In this document: piece after piece, positions 1-49,700 of the stretch
How the letters are laid out: each line of letters begins with the position of its first letter
Position numbering within the stretch: position 1 is the first letter of the stretch
From: a virus
Virus record (IMG/VR): IMGVR_UViG_3300043570_004127
Span: 64,001 to 128,000 of that record
Strand: one strand, 5' to 3'
Length of the DNA stretch: 64,000 nucleotides
Notes under the pieces: model-generated
The model's input: only the letters and a program-made list of their open reading frames with translations
Database searches by the model: none
What the model was told of the DNA's origin: nothing
Made by a program: the position numbers and the translations under genes

Positions 1-3000
1 CTGTAGAGGAGTGCGTCAACCCACCAACCTTTTTTTCTGAGTTCGTCATCCTCGCCCCTGAAGTAAGAAACTCCTGACGGCCCACTCTCTGGGTATTGTG
101 AAACTTGTGAACGGAAAGAAAGAATAGGTTCAAATATTGAAACTTTCTTATCTTTCCAGCGCTTACCCCTGTATGTTATTCGATTTTTTTTTTCCTCTGG
201 TCCAGTACCATCAACAGTCATGGAGCCAGTAATGTCGTTGTCCTCATTATCGTCAAAAAACTCGCCAAATGGATTTCTGTTTACTTTACTGAGGTCACCC
301 ATTGGTACATCTTCGGGTTCAAATTTCCATCTCGGTGGTAGCCCTTGCTGTTCACGAACGTACCAGTCTGGAACTCGTTTTCCGGTAATCGGGTCGATGT
401 ATGAAAAGTCTTCGCCGAGTGTTGTGGTCACAGGAAATGGGTTTCCTGAATCATCAACATTGGTTCGCTTGGGTGTGCGAGTAGCGTTATTCTGTTGGCG
501 TCGCGGCCGGCGTTCGGTAGGTCTAACGGAGTCGTAGAACAGGCGTTCTTCTGGATTGCTCAGGACAGAGTATGCCTCTGAAATCTTTTTGAATAAGGCT
601 TCGTTGTTTTTATCTCCAGGATTTAGGTCTGGGTGCGTTTCTCTCGCTGCTTTTCTGTATGCGGTTCGCAGTTCTTTGTCGTTCGCATCTTCTGCAATAC
701 CAAGAATATCGTAGTAATCGTTATCTTTGTACTGTTTTCTCGGGAACCCCATAGCTCCAGTGATACCACTAGAGTTAAATCGGTTCATTGTTTCGGCTTG
801 GTCAATTTTTACCTCGACAACGTCTTTGCCGTGCAAATAGGCCATGTCTCTTATCGACACACCATCCAAGCGCATATCAATAAATTGCTTTTGGGAATCG
901 TTAAGATTTGAGCCGTTGAGAATTATGGCCCTTCTAAGTAATTGCGTGTTTGCATTGTCGGTCTTCTCGAGTGCATCTGAGTACTTCTTGAAGCTATCCC
1001 TTGCCTGGGCTGGAGTTATGTCTTCGGCCTTGGCAATTGTTTCTATGTCCAAACCGTCATGCTTGACCGCCACGTAGACCCTTTTTGGAAGACCGCGCTG
1101 CGAATTTATTGGGGCATTTATTAAATCTTTTTCTTTAACAGCCATTTTTCTTTCGAAAAGTTCCCTATTTTGCCCGCGCAGTTTTGCGAGTATTAACGAT
1201 TCAGATGTAATCGCGTCAAGAACATCCGTGCCTTCAATTTCTGCAATTTTATCGATAGGCATCCCGTCGAAGCGCATTTTCATGTGTCTGTTTTCGGCCG
1301 GAGTGAGGTTTTTCTTACTGTTCTGAAAAGCTTTCTCATATGTAGAAAGAATCTCAGTCTTGTTGTTTTCGATGAAATCAAGGTGATTCTGAACCGCGTC
1401 ATTTACTTCGCTAGCTTTTATCCCAAGCGTTTTCGCTATTTCGGAGTTGGAAATTCTTTCGTACGTCTTGCTGTAGAAGGCTTCGAGGTTGGTTTTTCTT
1501 AATTCTTCCCCCTCTTTGGACATTTCAATAAATTTAGAGAATGGAACTTTGTCAACACCCATGGAACCCGTGATATTTCCTGCTGATAGTGCGGACTTGT
1601 ATCTATTCCGTGCGACAGCCTCTGTTAGTCCTAGCTCTTTGGCTACCTCTTTAAATGTCTTACCGTTTCCAATGAGTTCAACGACCCTTGCTGACTCATT
1701 GTTCCGCTTTGCTTTTTGCTTGTCGGCATGTATCGAGCTTAAACCAATTGCTCTTTGGACTTTAATTACTTCGTTCGTGCTTATGTCTAGTTCGTTGGCT
1801 ATGTCGGAAGCAGAATGTCCACCAACAAATGACCTCTGAGCGATGAACTTTATGTTTTCCGCTGACTGAACTGGGGCAGCAGGCTTTTCGTCACGAAGTT
1901 TTGCAAAAGTTACGCCGTCCATGCGTGCCTTGTAAATTACATCTTTTACTTGCTGTGGGTTGAAAGAGTGAATTCCGCCATCGGCACGTGTGAAGTTGTC
2001 GGTCTCCCATTTTGCATTAATCGAGCGAGCTATAAGAACTGGATTTAGTTCTGTTCTTCGGAGCGCAATTACGTCTTTCATAATTTTGTCGCGCTCGTCT
2101 TTACTCAAATTGTCGGAAGACCAACTGGTTATCGGGCCACGGAAATATCTTCCTGCCATTGCCCCAGTAATTCCGCCATTGCGTCTTTCTCTGGCCCATT
2201 TCATTATCCGTTTGTTATGCAATTCAGCATCAGGGCCAAACGCTGTATAGCCGCTGTCTGCATTTTCTGTTGGTCGCGGAAACAGTTTCAATTTTTGGCC
2301 GGTCTCAATCGAGATTCTTTCCCTGGCCGCATTAACACCAGAGATGATTCGTTGTTGTCTCCTGCGCGAAATAGCGTTTAAGTTAACGAATCTGTCGTGT
2401 AATGCTTCATCGTCTGTGCCTGCAAGAGCAAGAGCAACCCATGCTGCATGGCCAAATGCTAGCGGCCTGGTGCCACCCGATATTCTTTCAAGTGAATACC
2501 ATGCCGCTGTTGATGCGTCGTCTCCGGCACGAACATCCGTATCTGGTGATACTTCAAGTACAACTCCGGATATTCTGGCGCCGTTAACGAATCTTGGGTC
2601 CCAGTCACGGGCCTCGATTTCACCGAGATGTTCCATTCTTATTACATCTTTATCCGTGACATTAACTTCTTCTAGGGCTTCTCGTTGTGCTGTGTCTCGC
2701 AATTCTTCGTCATCGTTTCTCATTCCACCAGGAAGCGACAATGACCTTGTTTGAGCGGTATGTGGACCAAACAATCTTTCTATTAGGAGTATTTCACGCT
2801 CGCCTGTTTCTGGATTTGTTCTAAGGATTACAGCATCGCCAGCCTCTTGCATTGGCTTGGAGTCATTACCTAGCACCCATGGAGTGATGGAGTCTGCAAC
2901 ATCGAGTTCAAAATTCCTATCCCCTGTGTACTCGCCCAATCTTTGACCCAGGCGCGCGGCGGTTCGCATCGTTTGGTCGGTAGGGGCGTATGGTAATTCA

Positions 3001-6000
3001 CCGCGTTTTTCTCTTTGATAAAGATTCGCAATGTGCAATGCGTCTTCATGTTTGGGGTGACCCTGTGGGAAAAGCTTGTGTCCCAATTCATTTACAACAT
3101 ACCAATTTCCATCAGGAAATTCTTCTGTGTAAAGCTGCATTGCTCCGGATATTCCGCCACCATATATGCGTTTTGCATTATCGGATAGTCTCGTTGGTTT
3201 GTAATCAATGAGTCTGGACGTGTATGCTCTCGCTCTCGAGATGTCCAGTTTTTCGGCATCCGCGGGGTTGAATACAGGCTGCGCTTGTCTTTTTTGTCCA
3301 CGCACCTTTTTGAATGTTTCCCTTGCGGACGTCTTGATATCTCTTGTGTTGTCCGCGAAGTCAGACACCATGCGTGCAATTTGTTGCAGCTTTGGCGGTA
3401 GATATCTGAACCCTGGATTGTTTTCTACGGGTTTAATGGAACCATTTGTCGCGTCTGCTATCTCTTGCGTCATGTTCCTGTTGTACCCAGAAGCCGAGTT
3501 TCGAACAGCCCTACTTATAGGAAGGCCGGCTTTGTCGTATCTTCTAAGTACGTTGGGTGCGACAAATTTAAAGTCCCCATATGCTGCTTGTCTGGCAGCT
3601 TTTCGTGAGGACATTTTGGCTGTGTCGTAGAACTCCGCATCTCTTCCACCGAGACGCATAAATCCACTTATTCCTGATTGGTTTGCTTGAGTCCTTACTC
3701 TTCCATACTCGTTTCTAAGTTGCTGTAATTCGGATATGTTTCTTTGGGCGAGCGCTGTTATTCGAGCCGTAGCACCAGAAGCAGCATCTCGTCCGTCTTC
3801 ACGGGCGGAAAATCTCATCTTCTTCAACAACTCTCCCAGGGGGCCAGGTTTTTCTTCTGTTCCCAGGTGAAGCGCGTCCCATCTTCTTATTCTGTTCAAA
3901 TACTGCGTAGCAGATTCTTTTGACTTATCCCAACCTGGGAGTATTGTCCCATCCCTAAGTGTCTGTTGTTCTCTATTGGGCGGTCGTGTTGCAAATATTT
4001 CTCGAACCAGAATCATCTGTCTTGAAAAAGCGGTCCTAAATCTTGAGTACTCTATTTCGATTTTGTCAACAATTGATTTTTGCTTGTCTATCTCTTTGTC
4101 GATTGCCTTAGCCCAATCCTTTGGTTCAAGCCCTTTAGCAACAAACTCATCTTTTATTCTCTGAATTCTCTTCTTTGTAAATTCGTCGGCTCGTGATAAG
4201 GCAGCAGTATCCGCAACCCTTCTGGCATCATTGTATTTCTGCGTACTGATGTTATTTTCCAAAGCATAACGCTTGAGCGCCAAAATCAAATTTTGAGTAT
4301 CAATCAAATTTTCATCGAATGCAATCTCGTCTGCAGAAAGAGTTCCAGAATCAAAAAGGTTCCACAACTGCGCCCTTCGTGCCGAAGATGCAGGGGTCGA
4401 AGAATTTAGGTCGTCATGTTCCTGCTTGATTGCGGCATCACGTGCTTCCTTTAGTTTCGTGCGAGCTTGAGATGCACTGTAGTCATCCGCAGAAAGATTT
4501 ACGCTAGGCATACCACCGCTGCCATAAGAACCGCTTCTTGTTATTTCATTTAAATCACCGATTAATTCTCCATTAGCGTCACGTGTAAACCATTGAGGTT
4601 CATCCGCAGCAATAACTTCAATCAGTCTGTCTAAGCCAGAAGCAACACTTTGGTCCATTGCTAATGGGTCCGGACTGTTTATGTCACCTTTGTAAAATGC
4701 GTCTTCAAGCTCTTTTGGCGGAACGGCGACATCGACCATTTCATCTAGGTTTTTATATCTATCTACCTGGCTTCCCGGGTAGTCTTCTGTCCATTCACGT
4801 AGAAAGTGACCGTTCGACAACCAGTGCCTATAGAGCACCTGGTCGAGTAGGTTCATTTTTGTTACATCTATTGGGTTGCCATTGATATCAAGATTGAATG
4901 GGTGATTATCGCTTCCGTCGTATGCTGGTGCAATTATGTTTCCCTCATCATCGTAAATTGGCTGGTTCCAAACTTCCGGTGTGTCAAGAGTTCCGTATTT
5001 GTCTTCAAATCTTGGCTGTGATGCCTTGTCCCCGTAGTTCATGAGTTCATTTAGGAATTCTTCAATCTGCCGACTGATTTCTCCTTCATCGTCTCCCATG
5101 ACTGAACCACCATCATCGTCTGGTGGCGGTGGTGGCTCTTCACTTCCATCGTCTGGCGCTGGCGGCTCGTCGCTACCATCTTCTCCTGCTTCTTCACCTG
5201 GTTGACCAGGGTCGATGGCGTCCATGTCGGAAGCGCCATCATCGTCGATGTTGTCTATTCTCCGTGTACGAGATGGATACTCTGGACGTAGTACGTCGTT
5301 TGAAAGCCAACCGTTCGATTGTCCAATATCTATGAAAAGATTAAGTTTTTCTTGAGCTGCAAGAGCTTCAATCGGGTCTACGTTTTCTCCGTCGAGAATT
5401 CTGTTGGTAACGTCAAAGAACGGTTGTGCTGATTCTTCAACCCCCTGCGACCATTCGGTGTGGGTATAAGGCATGCCCGTATTAGGGTTCAGTAGTTCTT
5501 CTGGAGTCCTATCCATCCATGCCGGGATATTGTTTAGGAAATCCTCTATCGTCGCTATACCGTTAGCAACATCTTTGTCAATTTCATTATCAATCATTTG
5601 CTCGACAAGTTTGTCGAAGTTTGGGTCACTCGTTGACAATCCATTATCTTGAAGCATGCGTTTTGCAAGCATCGTTCTAAACTCTAAGTCTTGATACTCG
5701 TCAGCTATACCATATGCCACATCTTCGGCAAGTGAAAGTGTTGTCGAGTTAAGTGGCTCGCGCACAGATTGTCTTATGTCGGAATTTGATGGATTATTTG
5801 CATTTATCAATCCAGGGATAATAAATGTATTAAAGAAATTATCAATTTCCTTATCCGACATTGCATCCGGGTCAAGTCTTGAGATATTTCCGGATGGATT
5901 TACGTTTTTGTATTCGTCTAAAAATTCCTTAACTAATGGACGTTTTATGTTTGCTGCTGCTGCCAACTCTCTTGGCGACGGCGGAGCTGTGGCTGCCCTG

Positions 6001-8261
6001 TATCCCTGCATTGAAAGTCCGGCATCGTTCAGTTCTACTGACGTCTTATCGAACAAATCATCAACTTGGTCATCCGAAAGAATATCCAAACCGCTAATAG
6101 CTCTTGCTATGTCGTCTCCAACGAGAGCGGAAGAAAGTGAAGGAAGTTTCGTGTCCCTATCTGGTAGGAGAGCGAAATTCTTGAGCTGTTGGCGCTTCCA
6201 CTCTCTTCTCTTCCAATCAGACTCTTCTTGTGGTGTCATGTTCGGACCAGTCGCCATGGCTCCGGTTATCGATGAATCCCACATTTTTCCGGCATCGTTA
6301 TCCCTCGAAAGCTCCCTATAGAAACGCGCGTTCGATGCTCGCTCGTTCGTATCCCATCTAGATGAAGAGCCATCAAATGCGCTTTGGGCAGTTCTCTGTA
6401 TTTCGTTTAACTGCCTGAATCCGTTTGGCTTATTATTTCGGTCGGCAATATCTCTGACGTATCCACGTTTATTCGCTCTGTTCGTTTCGCGTATCCCGAG
6501 TACGAATTTTGAAGAATCTTTTTCTGGAGACTGACCAGAAGGGAAGGCCCTAAAAAGGTCGGCTTCTAGTTCTCCGTTTTTATTGTTCTTCTTTGAATCT
6601 CCGCTTCGGAAAACCCAATTCAACATTGAGTCCCAATTTTTGATTTTTCCTTCGCGCGCTGCTTCTAGAATCGGTTCTTTCGATACACCCATTCTGCTCT
6701 CTACAGCACTCGACAACTTGTTGTTATTGTTTTTAAAAGCCTTTTCGTTTTCATCTCTAAAGTCTTGATGATTTCGCAATACCGTAGCAATTTCATCGCG
6801 GACCACATCGAATTTGTCGGCGAGCTCGTCAATGGAGTAATCGCCATCTTGCCAAGCGCGATAAATTTTATTCTTTTCTTGTCTATCGAGTTGATTTGAG
6901 AAATCATCGTAAGACTCTTTCAGTGCGCGAGCACGCTCTGCTTCCATGCCAAGTTTGCGAGCGGTTTCTTGTAATTCTTCAGTAGTTGAATCAATTTGCT
7001 CCACCTGTTGGACGGCTTGAGGCTTTGGCTTCGCCTCGCTAGCTTTAGGTTTTGGAGTATTAATCGGCTTGCGTTCCGCAACTCTCTCCGCCTCCCGGCG
7101 TGGTGTTGTTGGCTTTGCTCTCTCTATTCGTGCTGGTTTCTTTTCTGCGCTTTGTCCGCGAGACACAACCCTGGGAACGCGGTCTTCTCTCGGCTCACGG
7201 CGTGGGAGATTCACCCTATTTTCGGTAATTCGTTGAGCTAAACGTTCTGTTGGTTTTACGCTTGGTGCACTTGGTTTTTTGACTGGACCGATTGGATTAA
7301 TTCCAGGTATCGCTGGGCGTTCGTGAATTGTGCCTTCCTGAACAACCCTGTCAGAGTCGGCGTCTCTTGCATTTTGTTCGAATGGAACTACTGCAGCTCC
7401 AATTCCTCCCATTGTTCTACGCGCGGAACGTCCCCTGTTTTCTACTTCCCCAACTCCGATGCGACCAGCGAGCCCGCCACTAAGTCGTCTCCCAACGGCC
7501 TTGAAATCTAACTCCTCGTAGAATTCAATATGCTTTTGTCCTCTTGCTGCTCGTTTTCTAGCCTTAGCTGCTGCTCTTGTATTCGAAACCACTCGCTTGC
7601 CAAGCTTGCTTCCTTCTATTTTTTTACGATTGGTAGCAGCACGTTGCCCCACGGTTAAATTTTCCCAAGCTTTTGCTGGCAAATATCTTCTTGTGACAGT
7701 TCCACGTTTTGCTGGCTTGCCATCTATTGTGCGCCATTTTTGCTTGGTCCACCTACCCAAAGAGCGTTGAGTCTTACTCTTGCTTCCCCTGTATCCACCA
7801 CCAGCTTTTCTGTATGCATTGGCGAGAAGCTGAGCTTTTCTTGCAGACCACTGGCCCGGTGCTCCACCTTTAGAGCCAGACATTATCCGTTCTTTTAGAC
7901 GGTCGCGTAATTCTGGCTTTGTATAGTTGGCGCTTTTTTCTTTGTATTTTCGTTTCGAAGGAGAGCCAATTATTTGCCTTATCTCGCGCTCTAATTGAGT
8001 TCGACGATATTTACGACCAGAAAAACCTATTCCGGAATATTTTCTGTAGTCCGATTCGTTTGTGCATGGCATCCATGAAACACCGCCGGTTCGGTTACTG
8101 TATCGACGAATTCCGATGCATCCAAGTTGTCTTGCTCTAACGCGAGCAGATTCTGGGTCTGAATAAGTATCTGGGTCTGAAGGACGAACGATACGCGCTC
8201 CGCCCAGAACATCCTTGATTTCAGAATTTTCGTCTTCGTTAATCTGGTCCATATAGTCCAT
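1..8261 (-). CDS. Giant multidomain putative virion polyprotein (>2750 aa, truncated at the window edge). N-terminal DUF3721-like and DUF5872-like motifs, acidic/Pro-rich region, Nudix hydrolase, tandem sigma70-region-4-like HTHs, DnaJ J-domain
   Basis: Manual translation from ATG at 8261 gives MDYMDQINEDENSEIKDVLGG. No in-frame stop was found, and the ORF track omits it, consistent with no stop before position 1. Motifs in this frame: RARQLGCIG...WMPC; NYTKPELRDRLKERIMSGSKGGAPGQWSARKAQLLA; PGGMRNDDEELRDTAQREALEEV; DYYDILGI...HPDLNPGD...FKKISEAYSVLSNPEERLFYD. Seven GITGAM-type motifs are also in this frame. Confidence 0.9.
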   Translation of the reverse strand, partial: MDYMDQINEDENSEIKDVLGGARIVRPSDPDTYSDPESARVRARQLGCIGIRRYSNRTGGVSWMPCTNESDYRKYSGIGFSGRKYRRTQLEREIRQIIGSPSKRKYKEKSANYTKPELRDRLKERIMSGSKGGAPGQWSARKAQLLANAYRKAGGGYRGSKSKTQRSLGRWTKQKWRTIDGKPAKRGTVTRRYLPAKAWENLTVGQRAATNRKKIEGSKLGKRVVSNTRAAAKARKRAARGQKHIEFYEELDFKAVGRRLSGGLAGRIGVGEVENRGRSARRTMGGIGAAVVPFEQNARDADSDRVVQEGTIHERPAIPGINPIGPVKKPSAPSVKPTERLAQRITENRVNLPRREPREDRVPRVVSRGQSAEKKPARIERAKPTTPRREAERVAERKPINTPKPKASEAKPKPQAVQQVEQIDSTTEELQETARKLGMEAERARALKESYDDFSNQLDRQEKNKIYRAWQDGDYSIDELADKFDVVRDEIATVLRNHQDFRDENEKAFKNNNNKLSSAVESRMGVSKEPILEAAREGKIKNWDSMLNWVFRSGDSKKNNKNGELEADLFRAFPSGQSPEKDSSKFVLGIRETNRANKRGYVRDIADRNNKPNGFRQLNEIQRTAQSAFDGSSSRWDTNERASNARFYRELSRDNDAGKMWDSSITGAMATGPNMTPQEESDWKRREWKRQQLKNFALLPDRDTKLPSLSSALVGDDIARAISGLDILSDDQVDDLFDKTSVELNDAGLSMQGYRAATAPPSPRELAAAANIKRPLVKEFLDEYKNVNPSGNISRLDPDAMSDKEIDNFFNTFIIPGLINANNPSNSDIRQSVREPLNSTTLSLAEDVAYGIADEYQDLEFRTMLAKRMLQDNGLSTSDPNFDKLVEQMIDNEIDKDVANGIATIEDFLNNIPAWMDRTPEELLNPNTGMPYTHTEWSQGVEESAQPFFDVTNRILDGENVDPIEALAAQEKLNLFIDIGQSNGWLSNDVLRPEYPSRTRRIDNIDDDGASDMDAIDPGQPGEEAGEDGSDEPPAPDDGSEEPPPPPDDDGGSVMGDDEGEISRQIEEFLNELMNYGDKASQPRFEDKYGTLDTPEVWNQPIYDDEGNIIAPAYDGSDNHPFNLDINGNPIDVTKMNLLDQVLYRHWLSNGHFLREWTEDYPGSQVDRYKNLDEMVDVAVPPKELEDAFYKGDINSPDPLAMDQSVASGLDRLIEVIAADEPQWFTRDANGELIGDLNEITRSGSYGSGGMPSVNLSADDYSASQARTKLKEARDAAIKQEHDDLNSSTPASSARRAQLWNLFDSGTLSADEIAFDENLIDTQNLILALKRYALENNISTQKYNDARRVADTAALSRADEFTKKRIQRIKDEFVAKGLEPKDWAKAIDKEIDKQKSIVDKIEIEYSRFRTAFSRQMILVREIFATRPPNREQQTLRDGTILPGWDKSKESATQYLNRIRRWDALHLGTEEKPGPLGELLKKMRFSAREDGRDAASGATARITALAQRNISELQQLRNEYGRVRTQANQSGISGFMRLGGRDAEFYDTAKMSSRKAARQAAYGDFKFVAPNVLRRYDKAGLPISRAVRNSASGYNRNMTQEIADATNGSIKPVENNPGFRYLPPKLQQIARMVSDFADNTRDIKTSARETFKKVRGQKRQAQPVFNPADAEKLDISRARAYTSRLIDYKPTRLSDNAKRIYGGGISGAMQLYTEEFPDGNWYVVNELGHKLFPQGHPKHEDALHIANLYQREKRGELPYAPTDQTMRTAARLGQRLGEYTGDRNFELDVADSITPWVLGNDSKPMQEAGDAVILRTNPETGEREILLIERLFGPHTAQTRSLSLPGGMRNDDEELRDTAQREALEEVNVTDKDVIRMEHLGEIEARDWDPRFVNGARISGVVLEVSPDTDVRAGDDASTAAWYSLERISGGTRPLAFGHAAWVALALAGTDDEALHDRFVNLNAISRRRQQRIISGVNAARERISIETGQKLKLFPRPTENADSGYTAFGPDAELHNKRIMKWARERRNGGITGAMAGRYFRGPITSWSSDNLSKDERDKIMKDVIALRRTELNPVLIARSINAKWETDNFTRADGGIHSFNPQQVKDVIYKARMDGVTFAKLRDEKPAAPVQSAENIKFIAQRSFVGGHSASDIANELDISTNEVIKVQRAIGLSSIHADKQKAKRNNESARVVELIGNGKTFKEVAKELGLTEAVARNRYKSALSAGNITGSMGVDKVPFSKFIEMSKEGEELRKTNLEAFYSKTYERISNSEIAKTLGIKASEVNDAVQNHLDFIENNKTEILSTYEKAFQNSKKNLTPAENRHMKMRFDGMPIDKIAEIEGTDVLDAITSESLILAKLRGQNRELFERKMAVKEKDLINAPINSQRGLPKRVYVAVKHDGLDIETIAKAEDITPAQARDSFKKYSDALEKTDNANTQLLRRAIILNGSNLNDSQKQFIDMRLDGVSIRDMAYLHGKDVVEVKIDQAETMNRFNSSGITGAMGFPRKQYKDNDYYDILGIAEDANDKELRTAYRKAARETHPDLNPGDKNNEALFKKISEAYSVLSNPEERLFYDSVRPTERRPRRQQNNATRTPKRTNVDDSGNPFPVTTTLGEDFSYIDPITGKRVPDWYVREQQGLPPRWKFEPEDVPMGDLSKVNRNPFGEFFDDNEDNDITGSMTVDGTGPEEKKNRITYRGKRWKDKKVSIFEPILSFRSQVSQYPESGPSGVSYFRGEDDELRKKGWWVDALLY

Positions 8262-8372: not shown

Positions 8373-10682
8373 TTATTCATTGTTTAAAAGTTTTTCAAGT
8401 TCTTCCTGGTGCAGCTGTTTTATTGCTTCAATATCAATATTTATGAATTGCGACCTAGCGAAGTCTGCTAAGTCGAATTTCTCCGGATTACGTCCTTCGT
8501 CAATGTCAATCTGATAAGCAATTTGGAGCGTATCCCGGATGTCCCTGGCTTGAGAACTGGTGACCGAATCGATGGTGTTTTTTTCAAGGAATTTGGGGTT
8601 TTGAATTTTCTTTTTATTAAGGAATGATTCTCTTTCATTTTTCAAAAGTTTTGCAACCATCGCACTAGTTAATTGCTCTGAATCAAGCAGGGTGGCATCT
8701 CGTAGTTCTTCTGTTAAATGTTTTAGTGTTGTTGCTCGAGATATCTTTTCATCCACCTTTGAGTCTACTGTTTCCAGAATTTTATCTACTACGTATTCAG
8801 GTATTTTTGAATAATCGTCGCTTTCTCGAACCACCGACGTAGATTTCGGGATTGGACTAAGTCCAAAAGATGACCTTAGGTCGTCTTCTATTTGTTTTAT
8901 TCTCCTGTCAAACTCCGAGATTAATTTGCCTTCATCGTTCTTAAAGGCGAGACGAACACCAACCTCCTGCCCTTTACTGTTTTTTGCTGTGACATAAGGG
9001 TTATTCAACCATGAGTTATATCTCTCCCAATACTGGGATGGATTTATTTCTTTGGAAAATGTACCGAGAAAGTCGCGCACTTGTTGGGCTGCTGCAGTTT
9101 GGGGGTTTGCTGGGGTTTCGGAATGTGTAAAAACAACACCGAATGGGTCGTATAGAGCCCCATGGTCACTTCCTGATTTTCCCCACAGGAGCCCCAATTG
9201 TTCTATTTGTTTAGAAACTTTTTTTAATTGCGGAGCATACCCAGTCCCATATCTAGCATACTCTATCCCCCCAAATTTTGCGAATCCAATTTCAAAATTT
9301 CGTTTGCTATGTGCGTTTATGTACTTCAATCTGGTTGAGTCATCTTTCCACCAGAAAGTTAAACCACTAGATGGGTCACGTTTTCCTTGCGTAAAATATT
9401 TGAAATTGTCAATATCTTTTTGCGCCCATTTTTTAATAAATGGTAATTCTTTATGTGTGTCGCGTTGAGGTCCACCGCCAACGGCTTCCCTAAATGCTTT
9501 TGGACTTATTCCAAGTCCGGCCATCGCACCGGTGATTCCACCATTTTTCAGGTGTGACGAACGGGTGTGATAGTTATCTGGATTGTTCCAAAAAACATCA
9601 TTTCCTATTCTGTATCCTGCATCGCGAAGTGATTGAGCCATTTCTCTCGTTGAATTAAACTCGTCATTTAGTCCATGCAGCTGCATTGAGCGAGCGATTT
9701 TGAATAGTCGTGCTCCGTTTATGTTGTTTGTTGGGTCTTGACCGCCATCGAAATCCGGGTTAGCAATCCAGTCATGTTTTTTTATATCCCAGGCCATCGA
9801 CTGTAAGTAGAGCCCAGCTGCCGTCCTTAGTGATTCCAGGTATTCTGGATTGTTCTTTAAATCCTCTAATGGCTTTCCGCTGATGTCGTACCTAAAACCA
9901 TATCCGGCGCTTCCTCTGTCTATTGGGAATGTCCACCAATCAAAGTGCTGCTTGTGAAACTCTGCCCAATTTCTACTGTCGGCCCATGTTTTGAATTTCC
10001 TAGTTTGATTTGCCTGTTCCGATACAAGGCTATCAATTCCGCCAAATGGGGTGTTGTTTGTTTTCGCAACGTACTGTTTTGGTTTAGGTTTTTTGAACCT
10101 ATCCATCATCCCCATTTCGCCAGTTATTGAGTCACCTGGCGTTGGGTCTGGCATCTCTCTGGAGGTGCCATCAAAAATTAGGCCATTACTATTTGCATCA
10201 TTGCGTGTTAATGGGTTTTGGTCGCCGGTTATTTTTGCATTATTAAGAATTCGTCTTCCGATTCTGGGAAGAGCTTTTCCGGTTATGGCATCCCTATTTA
10301 TCCCGCCGTTTGTTATTGGAGGAATAATCCCACCACCAAAAGCCGTAACCGTACTCCCAGAAGGAGTCGGAGGGGGATTTAATATATCAGTATCAAGTCT
10401 TTCTCCAGAAAACGCTGCTCGACGTCGTTTTTTCTTTTTTACTCGTTTTGGAATAACTTCTTCAGTGTTTAGCTCCTTACCAGAACCGCCACCCGTCGAA
10501 CCGCTGTATGAATAGTGCGCACTGACTAATCCGACGCCATCGACAGATACTGGAGCATCAATCAATCGCTCTTTTAACTTCTCCCAGCCAGAAACGTTCT
10601 CTCCACGCAGCTTTCGTTTTTTTCGATTCTTGCGTTTTGGTGAAGATATCTCCGGCGTAATTTGTTTACTTTTATTATCCAT
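8373..10682 (-). CDS. 769-aa multidomain putative virion polyprotein with an OGFr-like module and a HicA-like module
   Basis: Long ORF. HFDWWTFP...NGARLFKIARSM follows SITGEM. GLLWGKSGSDHGALYDPFGVVFTHSETP follows GITGAM. Confidence 0.7.
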   Translation of the reverse strand: MDNKSKQITPEISSPKRKNRKKRKLRGENVSGWEKLKERLIDAPVSVDGVGLVSAHYSYSGSTGGGSGKELNTEEVIPKRVKKKKRRRAAFSGERLDTDILNPPPTPSGSTVTAFGGGIIPPITNGGINRDAITGKALPRIGRRILNNAKITGDQNPLTRNDANSNGLIFDGTSREMPDPTPGDSITGEMGMMDRFKKPKPKQYVAKTNNTPFGGIDSLVSEQANQTRKFKTWADSRNWAEFHKQHFDWWTFPIDRGSAGYGFRYDISGKPLEDLKNNPEYLESLRTAAGLYLQSMAWDIKKHDWIANPDFDGGQDPTNNINGARLFKIARSMQLHGLNDEFNSTREMAQSLRDAGYRIGNDVFWNNPDNYHTRSSHLKNGGITGAMAGLGISPKAFREAVGGGPQRDTHKELPFIKKWAQKDIDNFKYFTQGKRDPSSGLTFWWKDDSTRLKYINAHSKRNFEIGFAKFGGIEYARYGTGYAPQLKKVSKQIEQLGLLWGKSGSDHGALYDPFGVVFTHSETPANPQTAAAQQVRDFLGTFSKEINPSQYWERYNSWLNNPYVTAKNSKGQEVGVRLAFKNDEGKLISEFDRRIKQIEDDLRSSFGLSPIPKSTSVVRESDDYSKIPEYVVDKILETVDSKVDEKISRATTLKHLTEELRDATLLDSEQLTSAMVAKLLKNERESFLNKKKIQNPKFLEKNTIDSVTSSQARDIRDTLQIAYQIDIDEGRNPEKFDLADFARSQFINIDIEAIKQLHQEELEKLLNNE

Positions 10683-11076: not shown

Positions 11077-14000
11077 CTAAAACCAATTACTTGGACTCAA
11101 TTGAGCCGTTTTCCCATTTGGGTATTGTATCGCCCCTAGAAGGGGGGCGTAGTCGGTGTAGTCTTTTATTGGTTTATTCTCCATAATCATTGAAGAGCGA
11201 TTAAGCATAATGATTCTTCCTATTGAACCATTTAATGCGTGTTTCCATATTTGGGATGGTGTTATCGAGGAATCACTGATTCCTTCTGCGGCAAAACCAT
11301 CGTACCCCATCATGGTTGCAATGTTTTCTCCTCGCATAAACAATTGAGAGCGTATAGCTCTAATTATTTTTTTATTGTTGTCTGTAGCGCTTTGTAGACC
11401 AGCTGATTCATCTTCAAGCATTTTCACAAGGTCGCTAACGTGTGTCATTCTCTGTTGCAGCCATGCATTCCATAGGTCTTTTGTTTCCTCTATTTCCCGC
11501 AACTCATCAACCGACATTGCTGCAGCTTCCGAGATTCCTGGGAAAAGTGCTTCTCTCATATTTCTATCTAATCTCCCGTCTCTATTCATGCCCTCAATGG
11601 TTACGGCGCCCCAGCTAGCATCTGGTCTTTGACCTGGGGCAACAGGCGTACCTTTGGCGGTAAGTCTATCTATATGTGCGTCGAGCTCGACTATTTGCTG
11701 ACTACTCAATGTCTTGCTGTTTGGATTTAGTTTCAAACTGTCTACTGGAATGCCGTATATGCTTGATTGTCCATGGGATGAGTTCGTTCCGTTTGGGGCA
11801 TTCGGTGCACCAAGTGCGTTATATAGCGACCAAAGAGCTTCATAGCTTTCTCCGCTGTTTCCGCCTCCCTCTCCGCCAAAGATGCTTCCAAACTGCTTTC
11901 TGTTTACCAATCTTGACTCTTGCGAGAGGACCGCAACCATAGACCCACCCTGGTGACCGTGGTACGACTTCCATGCACTCGGGCTTTGGGACCAATACTC
12001 TCCCCTGCCGCTAGCGTTTCCGCCCTGCCCAGGTATAAACCGGTCTCCAGTTAAGGCATCGTTCACCATTTGCAACTGCACTGAAGCCGGTGCTCGTTGC
12101 TTGCCACCGACGCCTCTTGAAATAACGACATATCTTGGTTGACCGTCGGTCTCGACTTCCTTCAACATCTCGATAATTTCTTCTCTACTGGCGAGTACGG
12201 GGAAGCTATTAAATCCGTTGAATTGCCAAACAGCACCGAGGTGTGCGGTACCGGCATCCGGATAAACAATTCCAGCTATCCGTGAACCTTGAGGTCCGAC
12301 TATTGGCTGGTTTGGATTTGCCAAACCAGCGTCATAAATTTCTCCCAATACATCCAACATATCAATTTGCTCGTCGCTTATTGTTGCTGGCGCACCATGG
12401 GTAATAAATTCAAACAGCGTTTGCGCTCGGTGGTCGTCTCTTATTGTTATTATTTCACTTGCAGTTCTTAGTGCCTGTGGTGGCGTTGGCGAATTCCACG
12501 GGTCGAGAATTGATGGTTGATTGTCATACAATCCTTCTGCTCTTGGTAAACCCTGCGCTGCACGCGCAGCAACCCGTCGCGTTCTTTCGTTGGAACGTTT
12601 GGCTCTGTCTTCCATGCCAATTCTTATTGCATTTTCTATTGCAGCAAGAGCTGGAGGATTATTAACTATATGTTTTTCCAGTAGGTGGGCAGCCTGCTCA
12701 GCAATTGCTCCTTGGAAAATATAAATATCCTGGAGACCTTTATTGCGTCTCTTGTTCGTTGAAAGCTCTCTTCTCCATCCGCTCAAAGCATTGTCGCGAG
12801 CATCAACTGCCGTGGCGTGCACAGCAGAAATATGTCGTTGTGCGTCAAGCCAGGCCGAATTTGCTTTTTGTCTTAAAGTGTCTATTTCTTGCTGTGTGCT
12901 GCCGGGAATTGGATTGTTGGCTGCATGCTCTAACTGAAGCGCGCGATTGATTGGAATAGTCATTCCAGCGGTTGTTGTTCTCGAGCGATAGCTTCCATCA
13001 GGAAGATAGAACTCACCGATTGGTAAATTAGGGTCAAGACCGAGTCTTTCTACATTGAAGCTACCAGCATCTAAATATGCATTATTCGGATACGCTGCTC
13101 CATCGGCAATAAGTTTGGTGGTTGTAGGGCTCGCGTTTGTTATGGAACGCGAGAGCCAATTTGCTCCATCGAGAAGTTCGTTTGAAGTAGCCGCGTTTTG
13201 GAGTAACTGCACAGCTATTGTTGCGTCTAAATCTTTGAGTAATGGAAATACTGGCTGAGTCACGTCATTAGTAACGCGTGCACCTCTTGTGTCTATGTAA
13301 GACAATTCGCTCAGGGGTGCTTCCGTCTGGGCACTAATTTTTTTATTTCCACCTTTTTTGTGTTCTTCAAAACGCTTCCTCACTGCGTTCCTGAATGAAC
13401 TAATTACACCTATGTAGTGATTTTTGGCAGCGGCAGTTTTGGGTTTTACTGTTATATCTAGTGACGGTGTGTTTGGGTCGACGCCTGGCGCTACTCGTAG
13501 TACCGGTATTCCTTTTGTTAACGCGTTATTGGTGTCCACCGCTATATGTGGGAATATATTCCCAACCCCTGCCCCACCGTCGAGTACGAGTGGTTTTGGG
13601 GTGTAAATGGAATGCTGGTCAATCGGAAGATTTGATAAATCTTCAACAAACTCCCCGGTTGATGTGTCAATGTAAAGTCCTGACTTGGTATCAAAAACGA
13701 TTCCCAACGCTGAGTTGCCCACTCCTGGGGTAATTGTCTGTCCGGTTCCAGGGGCTCGCGGTATAGGTGTCGTCGTTGGTATTACTGGTGCACTTGGCGT
13801 AACGCTTGGAGCGATTGGGGGAGTTGGGACGGGAGGAGTAGAAGGAGTCGATGTTGGGGTAGGAGGGGCCGACGGGGTAGGAGAAACTGGAACTGGTGAC
13901 GTAGCACCACCACCCGGAGTCTGTGGGGTGTTCCCTCTATTTGGACCATACGGTGTGTACGGTCTGCGTTTAACCGGGTCAACTCCTGTTCCCGTTATCT

Positions 14001-17000
14001 TTGCATTGTCCATCACTCTTTTGCGCAAAGATGGTTTTAGGTCGTTGATTAGGTTGTGGTCTTTTGTTGATTCAAAATCAGTTAATACCAAAAAGTTATG
14101 GAGATTGGTTTCTTCTATTCCGGCTCGCCTTGCGTCTGTTTTCGAAAGATTATCTATCCAACTAAGCAATTCGTCTTCGGTTAGTGGGTTTGTGTCGCCA
14201 ACTGCTTTGCCTAATTTCTTCCTAAAACTATCTTCTCTGTAGTCCAGTTCTTTCTGCATTTCTGAAGAAAGAAGTGATTTGTCAAGAGCACTCAGTGTCG
14301 ATGCGTCTGGTAGTTCTGGTCCTGTCGTGGTTTTGCTGAAACGCAATCCACTTCTAGTACTGCTGTTTGTAACAGAACGAACTCTCGCTCTTGTTGATGG
14401 TACTGCCTGCTGTTGCTGCTGGTTCGCTGGTCTTCTAAACCTACCTAAAACGCGTTGTATGAAAGTAGGTTTGGCATTTTGTGCTGGAGTTTGACTTTTT
14501 TGAATTTCATTTTTTATGTAATCGCTAGCAATGTATTTAACTTCATCGTTGCCATTTGCATCCGTGATTACGACAGCAGAAACAATGTGGTGCCCTTCGT
14601 CATCGAGAAAATGTGCCGTAGAGGAATTTGAATCTTCAATGTAGATTGGAGGCTGATACGGGTAGTTATTGTTTGGCTTAGGATTTCTCGTGCTGTATCT
14701 TATGGTGTTCCCTTTTGAATCCACCTGTTCAATCGTAAGACCAAAATTGGATACGGCACCCTGTGTCGGAGAAGGGCCATTCGGGTCATTGAAAGCTTTT
14801 GACCACTCATCAATTATTTCTTGTAATTCTTTTTGATTAGCGTCATCAAAGGAATCTGGTAATAGAGGTTTTCTATTTGGGTCTGTCAAAAGATTGTTTA
14901 GCTCAAGTACGCCACCAAAGTTTGATTCATCTTTAGTCCATACCGAGGCAGGTACTCCCTGTGGTGGCATGAGGTCCTGGAGAAGGATGTCAATTCTTGG
15001 GTCTCCATTGTAGATATGGCGAGCGGAAAGGTTCATTGACGGTGAGACTCTTTGTCCACTTAGTCGTGGGTCGAGAGGATAATTTTGAGGGGGCGATGCA
15101 TAGTTGACTTCGTCTTGTGGATTTACTGGCTCTTGTCTAATTCTGCTAGCCATACGTCGCATGAACTTGGCTGCTCGTTCTCTCCGTGCGTCTGTGGCTC
15201 TTGGTCTTCTGCCCTGTAGTTCTCTGATTGCGCGTTCTGTGTCAGTTGGTGGAGGACCAAATATCCCAGTCGACTGACCGATTCTCTGGACGATTCCTGG
15301 AGTATTCGGTTTACTGCCACGATTTTTGCGTTTGTTGTTATTTTTTGGAGCCCTTACTTGTCCGCCAGCAATGCCAGCACTTTGGCTCGTGTTGTTAATT
15401 TTTGAGATGCGTCTATTTTTTCTTCTATCTGGATTGACTAAATCATCTGCTGTTTGCCGCATTCGCCGAGCTATTGCTGCGCGCCTATTCGAACCTCGTC
15501 TGCCAGTTCCGGTTGAAAGCAGTTCATTAACTGTTTCCTCCCCAATTATTAAGGCGTCGTTTCTATCAAAGGGGTCTAATCTTCTACCTATATCGGGATT
15601 CGGCTGCCTGCTTCCATCAGCCGCGAATTCAAATAAAAACTCTTTTGCTATGGATGAATTGTAATCAATTGCATACATCTCATTCGGGGTTATATAGGCA
15701 GGAATATTATTGTCAAAGTATCTATTAGCACTATCGGTGAGTTGTTGCGTAATTTGAGTCGACCTATTGCCAAGCCATTTCTGCGTATCTATCATTCCCT
15801 GGAAATCAAAAAATTCACCAGTTGCGTCATTGTAATAAATACCGTTATCAGCAATATCTAAAGGTATTGTTCCACCATTTGTTCTCAGCTCATCAGATAT
15901 TAACTGGTCTGGTCTCGTATATTTTCTGTTAAAAGAATTTGCTGGCGACAGGAAATCTTCTGTTTCCTTTCGAGTGAGAACTTTTGCCCCACTGTAGTTT
16001 GCTAGAGCATCACGATATGCATCTATAGTATCTATTTGTTTTTGATTGCCGTAAAGATTACTCGTCACTTTAGCTGTATGGAGTATGTCTAGTCGTTCTT
16101 TTTGAGTTATGTAATCACCGATTACATTCGTTAGGTCGTATCCTGTTTTGCTTACATCTAATGGGTCACGCACCCCGATAAGTTTGAGTTCGTTTACTAC
16201 TTCGTCCGAATCAATCATCTCGTCAAGGTTTATCAACAAGCCATCTCCCAACAGAATGGAGCCATTGTTGGAAAGTTTCTTAGGAAGTATTCCGCCGGTG
16301 TGCCTGTATTCCAGTGGGATTTTCTTATCTCTTTTAAATTTATTGTCTTTGGGGTTTGGTGTAGAAGTTGGAATTCTTCTGGCTGCTCTGCGGGAAGTCG
16401 CCGTATTGAAAGCGTCATTTCTTATGTCGTTTCCGACACGCGCTATAACAGTTCCAGCGGCGATGCGAGCCCTGTCTCGACGGGTCATGTCGGGATTGAG
16501 AGAACCATATACATCTCTTGCGGTTGGATTTGCGGCGCGGAGTTTTTCTTTTGCGGTGCGCTTATTTATTTTTTCAACACGTCTCGCAGCACGACGCCCA
16601 AATTTTTCAACTCGTGCAATTCTTCTTTTTTCTGCCCCTGCTTCGAGTCTTTGTCCTGCTCTCAAAAGGGCTGGCTTGTCAATATTGCTTAGGTCGTCAG
16701 ATGGTTTGGCAATGTCACGCAATGAAGCGCCAATCATCCCACGACCGATTCTTCTAACCATGCCGAAGGTACAACCAGTGCCGAGTCGGTTGGTGTACTG
16801 ACCACCGAACGGAGTGTTGTCTGGACAGCGCCAGCCACCGCCGCCAGGCATATTTGTATCCCAAACAGCACGGACACCCTTCACCTGGAGTGTGAGGCTT
16901 GAATTTTTGCTGTCATGGATGAATGCTCTGGTTTTATAGTTGACTGCAATCTGCTTGTATGCAACATCAATAGACGCCAATCCAATATCCGTAATTGGCC

Positions 17001-29508: not shown

Positions 29509-29882
29509 GAATTTTGCTCCTTGTATTGCATCGAACTTGACAGACAGCCTTTTGGGTTGCTGCAACCACCACACGGATTCATGCGTTTTTCGCCTGAAAC
29601 TATGCAGTGATATTTATATGAAATTTTTTGTTGCTGTACAGGTTTAGCATAACCCATAACAGGGGTTCTTTGGCTGACGTTACCTACTTTAGGACGTGTG
29701 AAGCGTGTCGATTTACCACTTGCGAGATGAGTCTCTTCGGACTTGATTTGAGTCTCGATGACATCCAGTTTCTTATTGAGTTCTCCCACCAACTCAAAGT
29801 TATTTTGGACAATCGCTGAGTCGCGCTCAAATTCAATATTTTTCACAGCGTAATTGAGTAATTCCGTACGTTTCTCGTTCAT
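29505..29882 (-). CDS. Small coiled-coil protein with a C-terminal Cys4 cluster
   Basis: CIVSGEKRMNPCGGCSNPKGC; lies between the protease and scaffold-like genes. Confidence 0.7.
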   Translation of the reverse strand: MNEKRTELLNYAVKNIEFERDSAIVQNNFELVGELNKKLDVIETQIKSEETHLASGKSTRFTRPKVGNVSQRTPVMGYAKPVQQQKISYKYHCIVSGEKRMNPCGGCSNPKGCLSSSMQYKEQNS

Positions 29883-40404: not shown

Positions 40405-40407
40405 TAC

Positions 40408-41309: not shown

Positions 41310-41364
41310 CAGACGTAAGTAAAATGGTGTAAACTTTGGTAAAACTTGTCCACAGTGAGGTTTT

Positions 41365-41544: not shown

Positions 41545-41557
41545 AAGGTAATTCTAC

Positions 41558-43541: not shown

Positions 43542-43542
43542 C

Positions 43543-43908: not shown

Positions 43909-44008
43909 GCGTTCCGGTTAAAACGTACGCCAAAATCAAGCTGCGAGTAGTTATACTCTCAGTAGTCTCATAACAAATAGTTCCGATTTAAATGGGACGG
44001 AGGAAACA

Positions 44009-46700: not shown

Positions 46701-49700
46701 ATGGCAGCTGACGAACGCGCAACGATAACTATTGACGTAGACGTCAAAAATCTGAATAGGCTTCAGCAGGTTACCGCTGCGCTTGAAGCAATGGGCGTCG
46801 CATCCGAAGTAAACGCCGCTAAGTTCGGCAATCTTACGGGAGCAATGACTGGTCACTCAAGGGCATCAAATAAAGCATCAAAAGATTCACAAAGACTATA
46901 CGAGAAAATAAGCATACTCGACAAAGTAAGCATGCAATTTACTAAACAAGCGCGAAAGTTGATGCTTGGAGTAATGGCTATGAGCATTGAATTCGGCGTA
47001 TCTGCTCTCGCCTTGGCCTCAGTCAACGCACTGTTCGTTATAGGAAAAGTTCTTGTAAAGAGCTATCAACTTGCAATGCAGGGACTGGCCGCAGGTCTCG
47101 CATCGGTTGGCGTTGCCGCTATTGCCGCCGCCGCTGCGTTTAGCGAAATGCAAACAGCTCAATTCGCATTTAGATACTCGAGCGATTCAACGACTAATTC
47201 AATGGATAAATCCTCGCTCGCGCTCAGAGGTTTATACAAGGACACTCAGTTAAACATCTACGGCATGAAAGCTCTTTCTGCAGCATTTGCTGGAGTGAGC
47301 AAGAATTCTACGTTTACTGCTGGTTCGCAAAAGATGCTCCAGGGTTTTTCAGATTTTATTGCATCAAGTGGTGACCCAACGAAAGCGATGCAGGCAGCAG
47401 CTAATGCTATTGGTTTAATCCAGAAAAAACAAACTGGAACGTCAAAGCAGATGTCCACAGAAGCAATTAATGCAATCAAACAAATAAACCCAGCTTTGGC
47501 TGATTTGGCCAAAAAGGGTGGTGGTGGATTTGGCAATAAAGATAAATTTATTGAGGCTTTGCTTGATGGTTCACTTGCAGAAAAATCTGGTGTTGCTGGT
47601 GCTGCATCCAATGTTGCCGGAACACTTTTCGCCCAATTCAAAAGCTACCTAACAAGTTCTTTTGTTGAATTAGCAGATGTTGGTAAGCGTGTGCTTGAAC
47701 CAGTCAAGAAGGCAATGCATGCAATATTTACTAGCTTGACCAAGAATTTTAGACGGATTAGTTCTGACCTTGTAGCTTTTGGTCAAGGACCATTCCTCAA
47801 GTCACTCGTTACTGCTGTTGACAAGCTCGGCGAGTTTGCAGTCATGCTTATCAGGAAGGTCCTTCCCACAACTGAGGGTTTCTCTAAAAGGATAAGCGGA
47901 ATCTTTTATCAGTTACAAAGATATTTTTATCAGGTTACAACATCGTTGGACAAAATGCGTGACGGTGGGACCATTGTTATCAAAACTTTTGGTGAACCAA
48001 TACTCGAAATATTTAAACAGATTGGTAAAAGTGCTCGAAACATCGGGGAGCTAGCGGTGAAGCACAAGGATAGCTTCCTTAAATTCGGAGAAGCCCTAAA
48101 AAATATTGTTGTTGGATTTTTTGATTTATCAAAAACTTTTAAAGAAGCATTTACTGGAGCCTTGCCGGTTATCACAACCGTCCTTAACGCTATTGCAAAA
48201 ATAGTTTCGGCGGTGAACAAAGTTTTTGGAATGCTAACGGGTCCCAACAACCCAATAGGTTCTGCTATAGGAATATTCGCAATGGGCGGAATGGCGCTTA
48301 AAGGTACCAGAGCTGCACAAAGGAAAAGGAGATATTCGGGAAGTGGTGGTGGTGGTATTCCTGGATACAACGAAGTCAGCGAAATGGACTGGGCTGCTAG
48401 AGGACTGCCAATGCCCAGCAATGCAAGCGGAGCAGCAACCGCAGCAGGTGGTGGAACATCCCTAAGCGGTGCAATGGCCGTAGCCGCAAGTGCTGCATCA
48501 GAAGCTCTAACAACAGGTCTTGCCCCTGGAATAGGTTCTGTTACTGGTGCTTCCAATGCAGCTGCAACAGCATTAAACAAACTCGCAACCACGGCAAGCG
48601 GAGCATCAATGAAGGGCGGCATGAAGGGTGGGTCGGTCGATGACTATGGATACATCGAAAAGATGCCTACGCGTTTGCCTGGACAATCACAAGCCGACTA
48701 CATGCGAGATAGAACAAGATACATAATGAATAATAGGGGCGACGACTTACGTGACCTTGAATCTCGCGGTCCCCTATACGAACCATTGATTGCACCAGAT
48801 GGACGAGTTGGTAGTGGAGGAGGGAGAACTCCACAAATAAACCGCGGTCAAAGATATGACTCATTTGGATTACCAATTGCTGGGGGCGCAGCGACAACCA
48901 GAGAGCAATACAAATCTCAACGGTTTGATATAAGCAAAAAATCAGATGCTTTTGCACGCTTACTGGGTTATAGCGACACTACCGCTGGACGCGCAGCTGA
49001 CAGCCTGTGGAATTCGCCCGAATTTTTGAACTCTGCAGCTCAAGACAGTATGACCAGAAGTCAAAAATTGATGTCATTTTTACGTCCTAAGGGCAAGAGG
49101 GCATCTGACCTATATGCGGAAACTAAAGGTGGTCTGAAATCATTTTTGCCAAACACGGGCGCAACGATGAAAGGTCAGGCTCTACAAGTAAAAGACACCT
49201 TAAAGAATTCCCCACAAGCGCTTAAGTCATTTTGGAGAGGTTCTGGTGGCGGGATAACTGGAGCAATGTCAGGTGGCGGCACAACTGGTGCATCTGCGGC
49301 CGCTGGTGGAGGTCGAGTGATTAATGCTGGTCCAGGAAGTATCAGGGACATTGGACTGAAGGGGAAGCTTGGATACTTGGGAGGTAGAACCTTATTTGGT
49401 CAAGGGTATAAAGGCGGAACCTTCGGTACAGAACTGAAGAATTTGGTCACCGGCAAGAACATGAGAGACCGTTATCAAATGTCTCTAGCTAATCAGCAAG
49501 CTGTTTTTGCGAAGAATAATCCAGAAGCCGCTGCAGCAGGCGTAAAGATGCAGGGCAGCAGACTGAAGGCAATGAAGGCTGCAACAAAAGCAAATCTCAG
49601 CGGCCTTGGTGGTATGGGTGCAATGGCTGCTGGTTACGCGGCTAGCAGATTTGGCAATGAAGAAAATATGGGCGCTCTGCAAGCTGGTGCTGGAATGATG

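Follow-up and report, generated by a model that had tools for sequence, protein, structure and literature searches.

A junction peptide between exchangeable modules of giant phage proteins, and the protease that may read it

This work concerns a 64,000-nucleotide stretch of DNA from an uncultured phage (hereafter the window), G000:C1:9528-73527 of a 108,378-bp IMG/VR contig (G000) that is estimated to be 73% complete. Its head module encodes giant proteins in which, as in the prohead-protease protein and the tape measure, one short peptide recurs between domains. Our main finding is that this peptide, hydrophobic-[ST]-G-x-M, is this lineage's version of a junction peptide located in flexible linkers between exchangeable modules. 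Judged from the sequences, it is probably cleaved by a protease, and a conserved module with the HExxH signature of zincins, resembling anthrax lethal factor (LF), may be the enzyme that reads it.

An earlier note on this DNA had listed 20 in-frame copies of the pattern [GSNDR]-[ILV]-[TSV]-G-[ASEF]-M. A six-frame regular-expression scan returned exactly these 20 copies (Table 1), all within the frames of five long open reading frames (ORFs), and none elsewhere. In 500 within-protein shuffles of the ORF set of the window the same pattern was expected 0.10 times, and never occurred more than twice. Broader patterns gave similar results: 16 copies of [ILV][TS]G[AS]M were observed against 0.20 expected, and 11 of [ILV]TGAM against 0.05, and in the whole contig [ILV][TS]GxM was present 27 times as against 1.5 expected. 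Just four loose matches in the whole contig fall beyond the set of head-cargo, protease and tape-measure proteins, which is about the number due to chance. Specificity at each position was evident in the large proteins and at background level in the small ones: Ile is preferred over Val and Val over Leu, followed by Ser or Thr, Gly, a variable residue x and Met, and then mostly by Gly, Ser, Ala or Thr. The motif has no conserved Glu. In six genomes we counted 101 sites in 92.8k amino acids (aa) of large proteins as against 7 sites in 123.7k aa of small ones. The view that conservation is at the protein level, taken earlier from synonymous codon variation, was strengthened, as the sites use all four Gly codons, both the TCN and the AGY codons for Ser and, in relatives, both the CGN and the AGR codons for Arg. 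Because the motif codons vary, the constraint acts on the peptide. A mild codon bias was also observed (ATA in 10 of 16 Ile codons, ACT in 13 of 20 Thr codons, and TCT in 11 of 18 Ser codons in the related genome G002, versus 0.21-0.33 genome-wide); it may reflect spread of the linker by duplication or recombination, or selection on codon context.

For comparison we used 42 related loci and seven related contigs that are whole or nearly so; the complete genomes G001 and G002 are 160 and 138 kb, respectively. The motif is conserved in six further related genomes. A first set of six genomes had 17-27 sites versus 1.2-2.2 expected in five of them, and 5 versus 1.2 in G004. Its occurrence is restricted to three kinds of protein, namely the cargo giants, the protease protein and the tape measure (inside versus outside, p from 6e-4 to 3e-11). 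Different dialects are found in sister clades: G007 contains 26 sites of the form [PV]-[ST]-G-S-M (1.45 expected), and G006 contains 18 sites of the form L-S-S-G-x-[RK] (0.6 expected), without Met. Residue x also differs by genome, being Ala or Ser here and in the closest relative, Arg in G002 and G003, Lys in the L022 clade and Ser in G007. Dialects of the clades include ISGRM, VSGKM, PSGSM and LSSG-x-[RK], and Ser/Thr-Gly is the sole core that is common to all of them. In a profile search with the conserved module against 1.84 billion representative proteins 27 matches were obtained. All 19 matches with E<1e-30 were located in such giants or were fragments of them, and the large giants among these 19 contained 3-7 motif copies each versus ~0.15 expected. 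Because the relatives provide out-of-sample confirmation, the post-hoc choice of the pattern is of no concern.

In the protease protein, the Pro-rich linker is followed by a site that is orthologous among the clades and reads GVTGAM, VSGRM, ISGSM, PSGSM or LSSGK, which for most clades is their own dialect. Likewise, x shifts with the genome at the W-N-h-[ST]-G-x-M site and in the N-terminal stretch of the tape measure. Since orthologous, non-duplicated sites change in concert, a genome-encoded reader is indicated rather than mere copying of linkers, and the pattern of dialects is consistent with what would be expected of a co-evolving recognition enzyme. One further match in the protease protein, NPISGRM at aa 345-351 (window 31331-31351), has the form NP-x-x-G-[RK]-M in near relatives, is degenerate in G004 and G007 and ignores the dialect; it is probably a structural element and not a junction.

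The earlier note had also stated that the motif interrupts no recognisable domain. Indeed, no Pfam domain is broken by a site, examples being the Nudix, sigma-70 region 4 (sigma-r4) and DnaJ domains listed in Table 1, RNase_T (aa 824-961) and ATLF (aa 2281-2395). When aa 240-1100 of the 2470-aa protein were modelled with AlphaFold2 (mean predicted local distance difference test score, pLDDT, 70.8), all four sites of this region fell in stretches of pLDDT<50 between confident domains. In addition, the flanks of the sites are enriched in disorder-promoting residues (p 9e-6). The chains join many unrelated effector or enzyme domains: Nudix, sigma-r4/helix-turn-helix (HTH), DnaJ and zeta toxin in the 3687-aa protein, and zincin, DEDDh exonuclease and ATLF in the 2470-aa protein.

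When the proteins were split at the sites and compared with those of relatives, the proposed cassette behaviour was apparent: modules have been inserted, or moved between proteins, and are yet bounded by the motif. Thus, the DEDDh module occupies aa 779-1076 here, 1201-1481 in G001, 790-1065 in G002 and 2277-2546 in G005. A motif Met lies at either end of it in G001, G002 and G003, whereas in G005 there is one at its upstream end only. A 228-aa module of the 3687-aa protein is present in a different protein in G005, where motif Mets flank it too, and several relatives carry insertions of ~450 to 1500 residues that separate the conserved N-terminal core from the exonuclease module. Overall, 46% of the alignment ends lie no more than 25 aa from a site; random sites gave 13%, and a value of 46% was not attained in any of 2,000 permutations. 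We also sought modules that are joined by the motif in one phage and encoded by separate genes in another, which would locate the scissile bond, and found no informative case among the relatives. Together these results uphold one part of the earlier reading, namely that the motif marks junctions of exchangeable modules. As for the other part, cleavage at GA|M is one of the cuts that would be compatible with the sequences, a cut after Gly being equally so. Sister clades use L-S-S-G-x-[RK], without Met, and P-[ST]-G-S-M; because dialects lacking Met exist, Met-starting products are not universal.

Several individual segments deserve mention. The J-domain has an intact HPD and starts close to where J-domains naturally lie at the N-terminus of DnaJ proteins, which hints that a delivered J-domain protein recruits host DnaK. 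In the tape measure, aa 592-855 (window 48459-49268) form a stretch of 264 aa between two sites for which no homologue was detectable in the corresponding proteins of five relatives. Its flanks are conserved, and it looks like a variable cassette. Some sites form close pairs, with spacings of 7, 22 and 54 residues, at 21602-21685 and 25625-25804 here and at aa 599 and 606 of the 3462-aa protein of G002 (L061). The 54-aa piece that follows the W-N-h-[ST]-G-x-M site is itself conserved. If cut, such paired sites would release very short peptides.

As for the protease, the earlier list of candidates can be narrowed to two that are conserved, an LF-like zincin module in the 2470-aa protein and the S78 prohead protease. 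Relatives do not share the Pfam ATLF zincin at the C-terminus of the 2470-aa protein. This second zincin was rejected as the common protease, being absent in G001, G002, G003 and G005. The analogy drawn earlier with C39 double-glycine peptidases and adenain found no support, as the motif is G-x-M with a variable x and not G-G, and no such peptidase appeared in Pfam and PHROG scans of the head-module proteins, which did not cover every gene. The LF-like zincin module is bounded by the sites at Met 257 and Met 725. Its HExxH is present in the homologous giant of all eight genomes, in keeping with the zincin hub of polyvalent proteins (see below). In the alignment H476, E477, G479 and H480 are invariant, and an ExRAE element ~140 residues downstream, the Glu of which is a presumptive metal ligand, is nearly so. 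Modelled alone, the module gave a pLDDT of 77 and a predicted template modelling score of 0.80. The best VIA-align match of this model was the catalytic domain of anthrax LF (1yqy_A; Z 8.3, root-mean-square deviation 3.9 Å over 184 residues), followed by a putative Bacteroides zinc peptidase (Z 6.2) and the Pro-Pro endopeptidases PPEP-2 and PPEP-3 (Z 5.1-5.5). The 861-aa model (aa 240-1100), when submitted to Foldseek, returned the exonuclease domain alone. A predicted complex of the module (alignment A2) with a 44-aa GITGAM linker scored 0.09, below the threshold, and speaks for neither side. The module diverges fast: identity is 35-42%, and it is undetectable by BLAST in G004, G006 and G007. 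The S78 domain was identified by both Pfam (Peptidase_S78, E 5.5e-11) and PHROG (head maturation protease, E 8e-28). All relatives encode it, and it is 61-92% identical across all dialects.

The minus-strand gene order is portal-MuF, S78 protease, giants, major capsid protein, so that the giants, like polyvalent proteins, are encoded among virion genes. This position within the head module, with the prohead protease gene on one side and the major capsid gene on the other, agrees with the earlier description of the giants as virion proteins. In G006 (L092-L094) and G007 (L095-L098) a separate protease gene is missing, and a site-studded polyprotein, of 3316 aa and 2758 aa, respectively, has the S78 prohead protease as its N-terminal domain; G007 encodes a further giant of 5437 aa with 11 sites. 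These fusions are good evidence that the chains enter the procapsid and that the protease needs to be cut free. Gene position and S78 fusion together suggest that the giants are packaged in the virion and delivered.

That the conserved LF-like HExxH zincin module reads the cleavage code is possible, and is the explanation we tentatively favour. The zincin would cut between x and Met, with Met held in its S1' pocket. Cleavage before a residue bound in this pocket is the usual mode of zincins, and a variable x beside an invariant Met fits the P1'-driven specificity of thermolysin-like and LF-like zincins. Some 25 products would be freed, among them Nudix, J-domain, HTH/sigma-r4, DEDDh exonuclease, a zeta-toxin-type kinase, the second zincin and many modules without assigned function. 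Cutting would take place either in the filled head or after ejection, in the next host. The tape measure, which is ejected too, would be cut by the same enzyme, and the zincin, itself cargo, could meet it there. The quick divergence of the zincin parallels that of the dialects, which would speak for it as the reader. In its most complete form, the proposal is that of a lineage-specific programmable code: three to five polyproteins and the tape measure would be threaded into the host and not cut until then, by a co-delivered LF-like zincin, into ~25-30 effectors, the J-domain would recruit host DnaK for refolding, and effectors would be gained by insertion of cassettes between code peptides. 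That this entire chain of events holds is in our estimate rather doubtful.

Several observations weigh against the zincin. The fold match is modest, as models without a match typically have a best score close to this Z of 8.3. Foldseek found no match of the zincin model in the PDB at E<=0.001, Pfam gave none to the conserved module, and tblastn of the module against 50,697 phage records gave 0 matches, so that it has no cultured relative. S78 is no less universal, and in G006 and G007 it is joined to a polyprotein that bears the motif. The presumed P1' residue of the LSSG-x-[RK] clade is basic, and to accommodate it the S1' pocket would have to be remodelled. If the zincin were already active in the producing cell, the cargo would be cut before packaging, and its activity would need to be delayed. 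Finally, the N-terminal site of the tape measure is degenerate in G003, G004 and G005 and off-dialect in G007.

The same code might instead be read in the procapsid by the S78 (HK97-type) prohead protease, with a cut after Gly (P3 hydrophobic, P2 Ser/Thr, P1 Gly). This would parallel the precedent of T4 gp21, phiKZ gp175 and SPN3US for internal head proteins, and assemblin-fold proteases favour a hydrophobic P3 and a small residue or Glu at P1. The enzyme is encoded in every relative, with the giants located between its gene and that of the capsid protein; its own polypeptide bears a site at a conserved linker, which in most clades is in the clade's own dialect, and where it forms the N-terminus of a polyprotein it must be freed. 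However, the major capsid protein, its canonical substrate, lacks a canonical site: in six genomes it contains no [ILV][ST]GxM, and the only similar sequence is K-[ST]-I-G-x-M-F at aa 103-109, close to where the boundary of the delta domain would be expected. Moreover, S78 retains an identity of 61-92% across clades with differing dialects, the tape measure is not within the procapsid, and strict motifs are not a known feature of HK97-type proteases. Reading by S78 seems unlikely to us.

It is distinctly less likely that the motif is not cut at all and serves as a linker element for docking or packaging, recognised by a capsid, portal or chaperone component, or as a sequon for modification of Ser/Thr. 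Ser/Thr-Gly is the only core shared by all dialects, a kinase-like cargo protein is encoded, and the motif itself is known from sequence alone. Cut sites nevertheless account better than docking tags for the exclusive position at module boundaries, for tandem sites 7-22 aa apart and for the fusion of S78 to cargo, and two conserved proteases are at hand. Cleavage by a host protease, or by a phage enzyme encoded outside the sequence, has very little to recommend it: although the contig is ~73% complete and the tape-measure sites suggest action beyond the capsid, genome-specific dialects among close phages argue for a phage-encoded reader, and the complete genomes G001 and G002 have the same system. 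Least probable is that the motif lacks a function at the protein level and is a scar left in the DNA by recombination during cassette exchange, or that its ATG serves for internal initiation of translation, since the mild codon bias (ATA, ACT and, in G002, TCT) and the ATG supplied at every site are outweighed by the use of all four Gly codons and of both Ser and both Arg codon families, by the lack of a Shine-Dalgarno sequence at usable spacing, by the LSSG dialect without Met and by orthologous non-cassette sites that also obey the dialect.

Table 1. Positions in the window of junction sites, modules and the proteins that contain or adjoin them (Met and aa numbers refer to the protein).
Feature	Position	Strand	Remarks
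SITGAM, Met 669, 3687-aa protein	6255..6272	-	
GISGFM, Met 1535, 3687-aa protein	3657..3674	-	
GISGAM, Met 1708, 3687-aa protein	3138..3155	-	following module begins at motif Met in G005 also
GITGAM, Met 2035, 3687-aa protein	2157..2174	-	
NITGSM, Met 2234, 3687-aa protein	1560..1577	-	
GITGAM, Met 2504, 3687-aa protein	750..767	-	J-domain module starts at motif Met in G002, G003 and G005 too
DITGSM, Met 2681, 3687-aa protein	219..236	-	
SITGEM, Met 190, 769-aa protein	10113..10130	-	
GITGAM, Met 387, 769-aa protein	9522..9539	-	orthologous boundary in G001: motif Met at 396
RIVGAM, Met 257, 2470-aa protein	27191..27208	-	immediately upstream of zincin module
NLTGAM, Met 725, 2470-aa protein	25787..25804	-	conserved W-N-[IL]-[ST]-G-x-M site
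GITGAM, Met 779, 2470-aa protein	25625..25642	-	
GVTGSM, Met 1077, 2470-aa protein	24731..24748	-	
GVTGAM, Met 1544, 2470-aa protein	23330..23347	-	
GITGAM, Met 2098, 2470-aa protein	21668..21685	-	
SLTGEM, Met 2120, 2470-aa protein	21602..21619	-	22 aa past Met 2098 site
GVTGAM, Met 651, 830-aa protease protein	30431..30448	-	behind Pro-rich linker
NLTGAM, Met 49, tape measure	46830..46847	+	conserved N-terminal stretch, degenerate in some relatives
SLSGAM, Met 592, tape measure	48459..48476	+	start of 264-aa segment without match in relatives
GITGAM, Met 856, tape measure	49251..49268	+	Gly-rich region; motif sites here in G001, G002 and G005
Conserved zincin module, aa ~275-700 of 2470-aa protein, candidate processing protease	25862..27139	-	HExxH 26522-26536, downstream ExRAE
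Second zincin, cargo-type (Pfam ATLF), HEMGH aa 2337	20777..21121	-	this genome only
DEDDh exonuclease module (RNase T / Pol III epsilon-like)	25079..25492	-	Pfam; Foldseek E 6e-6
NUDIX module, aa 1811-1939	2445..2831	-	Pfam; between sites 1708 and 2035
Sigma-70 region 4-like HTH, aa 2193-2226	1584..1685	-	Pfam; between sites 2035 and 2234
J-domain, aa 2515-2577, HPD at 2543	531..719	-	Pfam; begins 11 residues past motif Met
N-terminal 2753 aa of 3687-aa polyvalent cargo protein	3..8261	-	runs off window start; Pfam in window part: DUF5872, NUDIX, sigma70 r4, HTH, DnaJ
769-aa cargo protein	8373..10682	-	three modules
2108-aa cargo protein	11077..17403	-	0 sites here, one each in G001, G002 and G003 orthologues; RCP...QYT...C leader at aa 192
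690-aa cargo protein	17400..19472	-	HipA-like kinase fold in C-terminal half; 0 sites here, NISG[AS]M in G002/G003 orthologues
2470-aa polyvalent protein	20549..27961	-	7 sites, 8 segments
520-aa acidic, Met-rich protein with PepSY-like repeats	28012..29574	-	0 sites; possible scaffold or internal protein
830-aa prohead-protease protein	29891..32383	-	S78 domain 31871-32302, then DUF6321, Pro-rich linker, C-terminal 180-aa module
Portal fused to MuF-like domain, 750 aa	32483..34735	-	0 sites
1671-aa tape measure	46701..51716	+	assigned by synteny (sheath, tube, chaperone, tape measure, baseplate)

The phage is of the contractile-tailed type, with sheath, tube, tail chaperone, a 1671-aa tape measure and baseplate genes on the plus strand. 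The head operon on the minus strand starts with the portal-MuF fusion (750 aa), the size of which is kept at 746-764 aa in most relatives, followed by the S78 protease protein (830 aa), the acidic protein (520 aa) and the cargo genes, encoding proteins of 2470, 116, 228, 690, 2108, 127, 769 and 3687 aa. It ends just outside the window with the gene for a 453-aa HK97-type major capsid protein (G000:5034-6395). The full-length 3687-aa giant ORF corresponds to G000:6725-17788 and contains 10 junction sites, three of them beyond the window, as is its Zeta_toxin domain detected by Pfam. The nearest cultured head genes are those of Brevibacterium phage Cantare and of Gordonia phages, which are myoviruses (capsid identity 47-50%). 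According to its annotation, the protease and capsid genes of Gordonia phage Gray are adjacent, without giants between them, which makes the giants look as if they had been inserted into a head module of the actinophage kind. An actinobacterial host may be guessed from the head genes.

The 520-aa protein has a variable, very acidic and Met-rich N-terminal region of 200 aa with Cys clusters, two PepSY-like repeats, and at its C-terminus a conserved element, G-S-F-P-V...A-I-x-A-F-G-R. The 690-aa protein is conserved, and its Atlas model resembles HipA-type kinases over aa 410-685 (template modelling score up to 0.71 by target); it may be an injected kinase. Both proteins were ruled out as the capsid protein, given the capsid gene at G000:5034-6395 and the kinase-like nature of the 690-aa protein. 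A Cys-x17-Cys leader (R-C-P...Q-F/Y-T...C) was noted near the N-termini of two cargo giants, at aa 165-190 of the 2470-aa protein (window 26400-27500) and aa 192-215 of the 2108-aa protein (16750-16830). By pattern search it is present in G000, G001, G002 and G005, and in one giant each of G006 and G007; it may be a capsid-targeting or zinc-binding tag.

From the junction peptide the ends of the products can be predicted exactly for ~25 modules in each phage, most of them without known function. The two named candidate proteases come with natural specificity variants (x = A, R, K or S; Met versus Arg/Lys; Ile versus Pro) for the study of enzyme-substrate co-evolution. If cleavage were confirmed, proteins injected by such phages could be read from sequence, and the protease-site pair could possibly be useful as a tool. 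A literature search for a published motif or for polyprotein processing in such phages found nothing beyond the work on SPN3US, phiKZ and T4, that on P1, and that of Iyer and co-workers.

The closest parallel is with the polyvalent proteins of phages and conjugative elements, for which a zincin-like metallopeptidase hub was proposed to release the domains, without a cleavage site being given (Iyer, Burroughs, Anand, de Souza, Aravind 2017; PMC5512222). By their sequence and gene context the giants appear to be phage-type polyvalent proteins: like these, they are giant strings of unrelated effectors encoded beside portal/MuF and other virion genes, with a zincin hub, and share the zeta-toxin kinase and the MuF context. 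They differ in having an explicit pentapeptide at every junction, with clade dialects, that is found also in the prohead-protease protein and the tape measure. What is new here, as far as the sequences go, is a defined junction peptide for proteins the processing of which was predicted in 2017 without a site.

In the head processing of T4, phiKZ and SPN3US, short motifs likewise lie on head-packed, ejected proteins, L/I-x-E for T4 gp21 and S/A/G-x-E for phiKZ gp175 and SPN3US gp245 (PMC10052503), and a protease of the same fold class as S78 is encoded alongside, in the head module. Those motifs, however, end in Glu and mark the major capsid protein, whereas the one described here does neither. 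In addition, their substrates are mostly trimmed single proteins and not strings of ~10 modules, and the tape measure is no substrate. The tape-measure sites would tie the tail to the processing of head cargo, which has not been described in known systems.

The candidate zincin shares HExxH and a downstream Glu with anthrax LF and the Pro-Pro endopeptidases (MEROPS M34), which provided the best structural matches and are highly sequence-specific endopeptidases. The likeness is at the fold level only (Z 8.3 and 5.1-5.5; 8-11% identity), without a Pfam match, and the activity of the phage module is predicted. Short, lineage-specific junction motifs between modules, with an embedded protease as reader, are also found in the polyproteins of eukaryotic RNA viruses such as picornaviruses (3C) and potyviruses (NIa). 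This analogy is one of function without homology: here the host of the system is a tailed phage with double-stranded DNA, and the products would be delivered pre-made in the virion.

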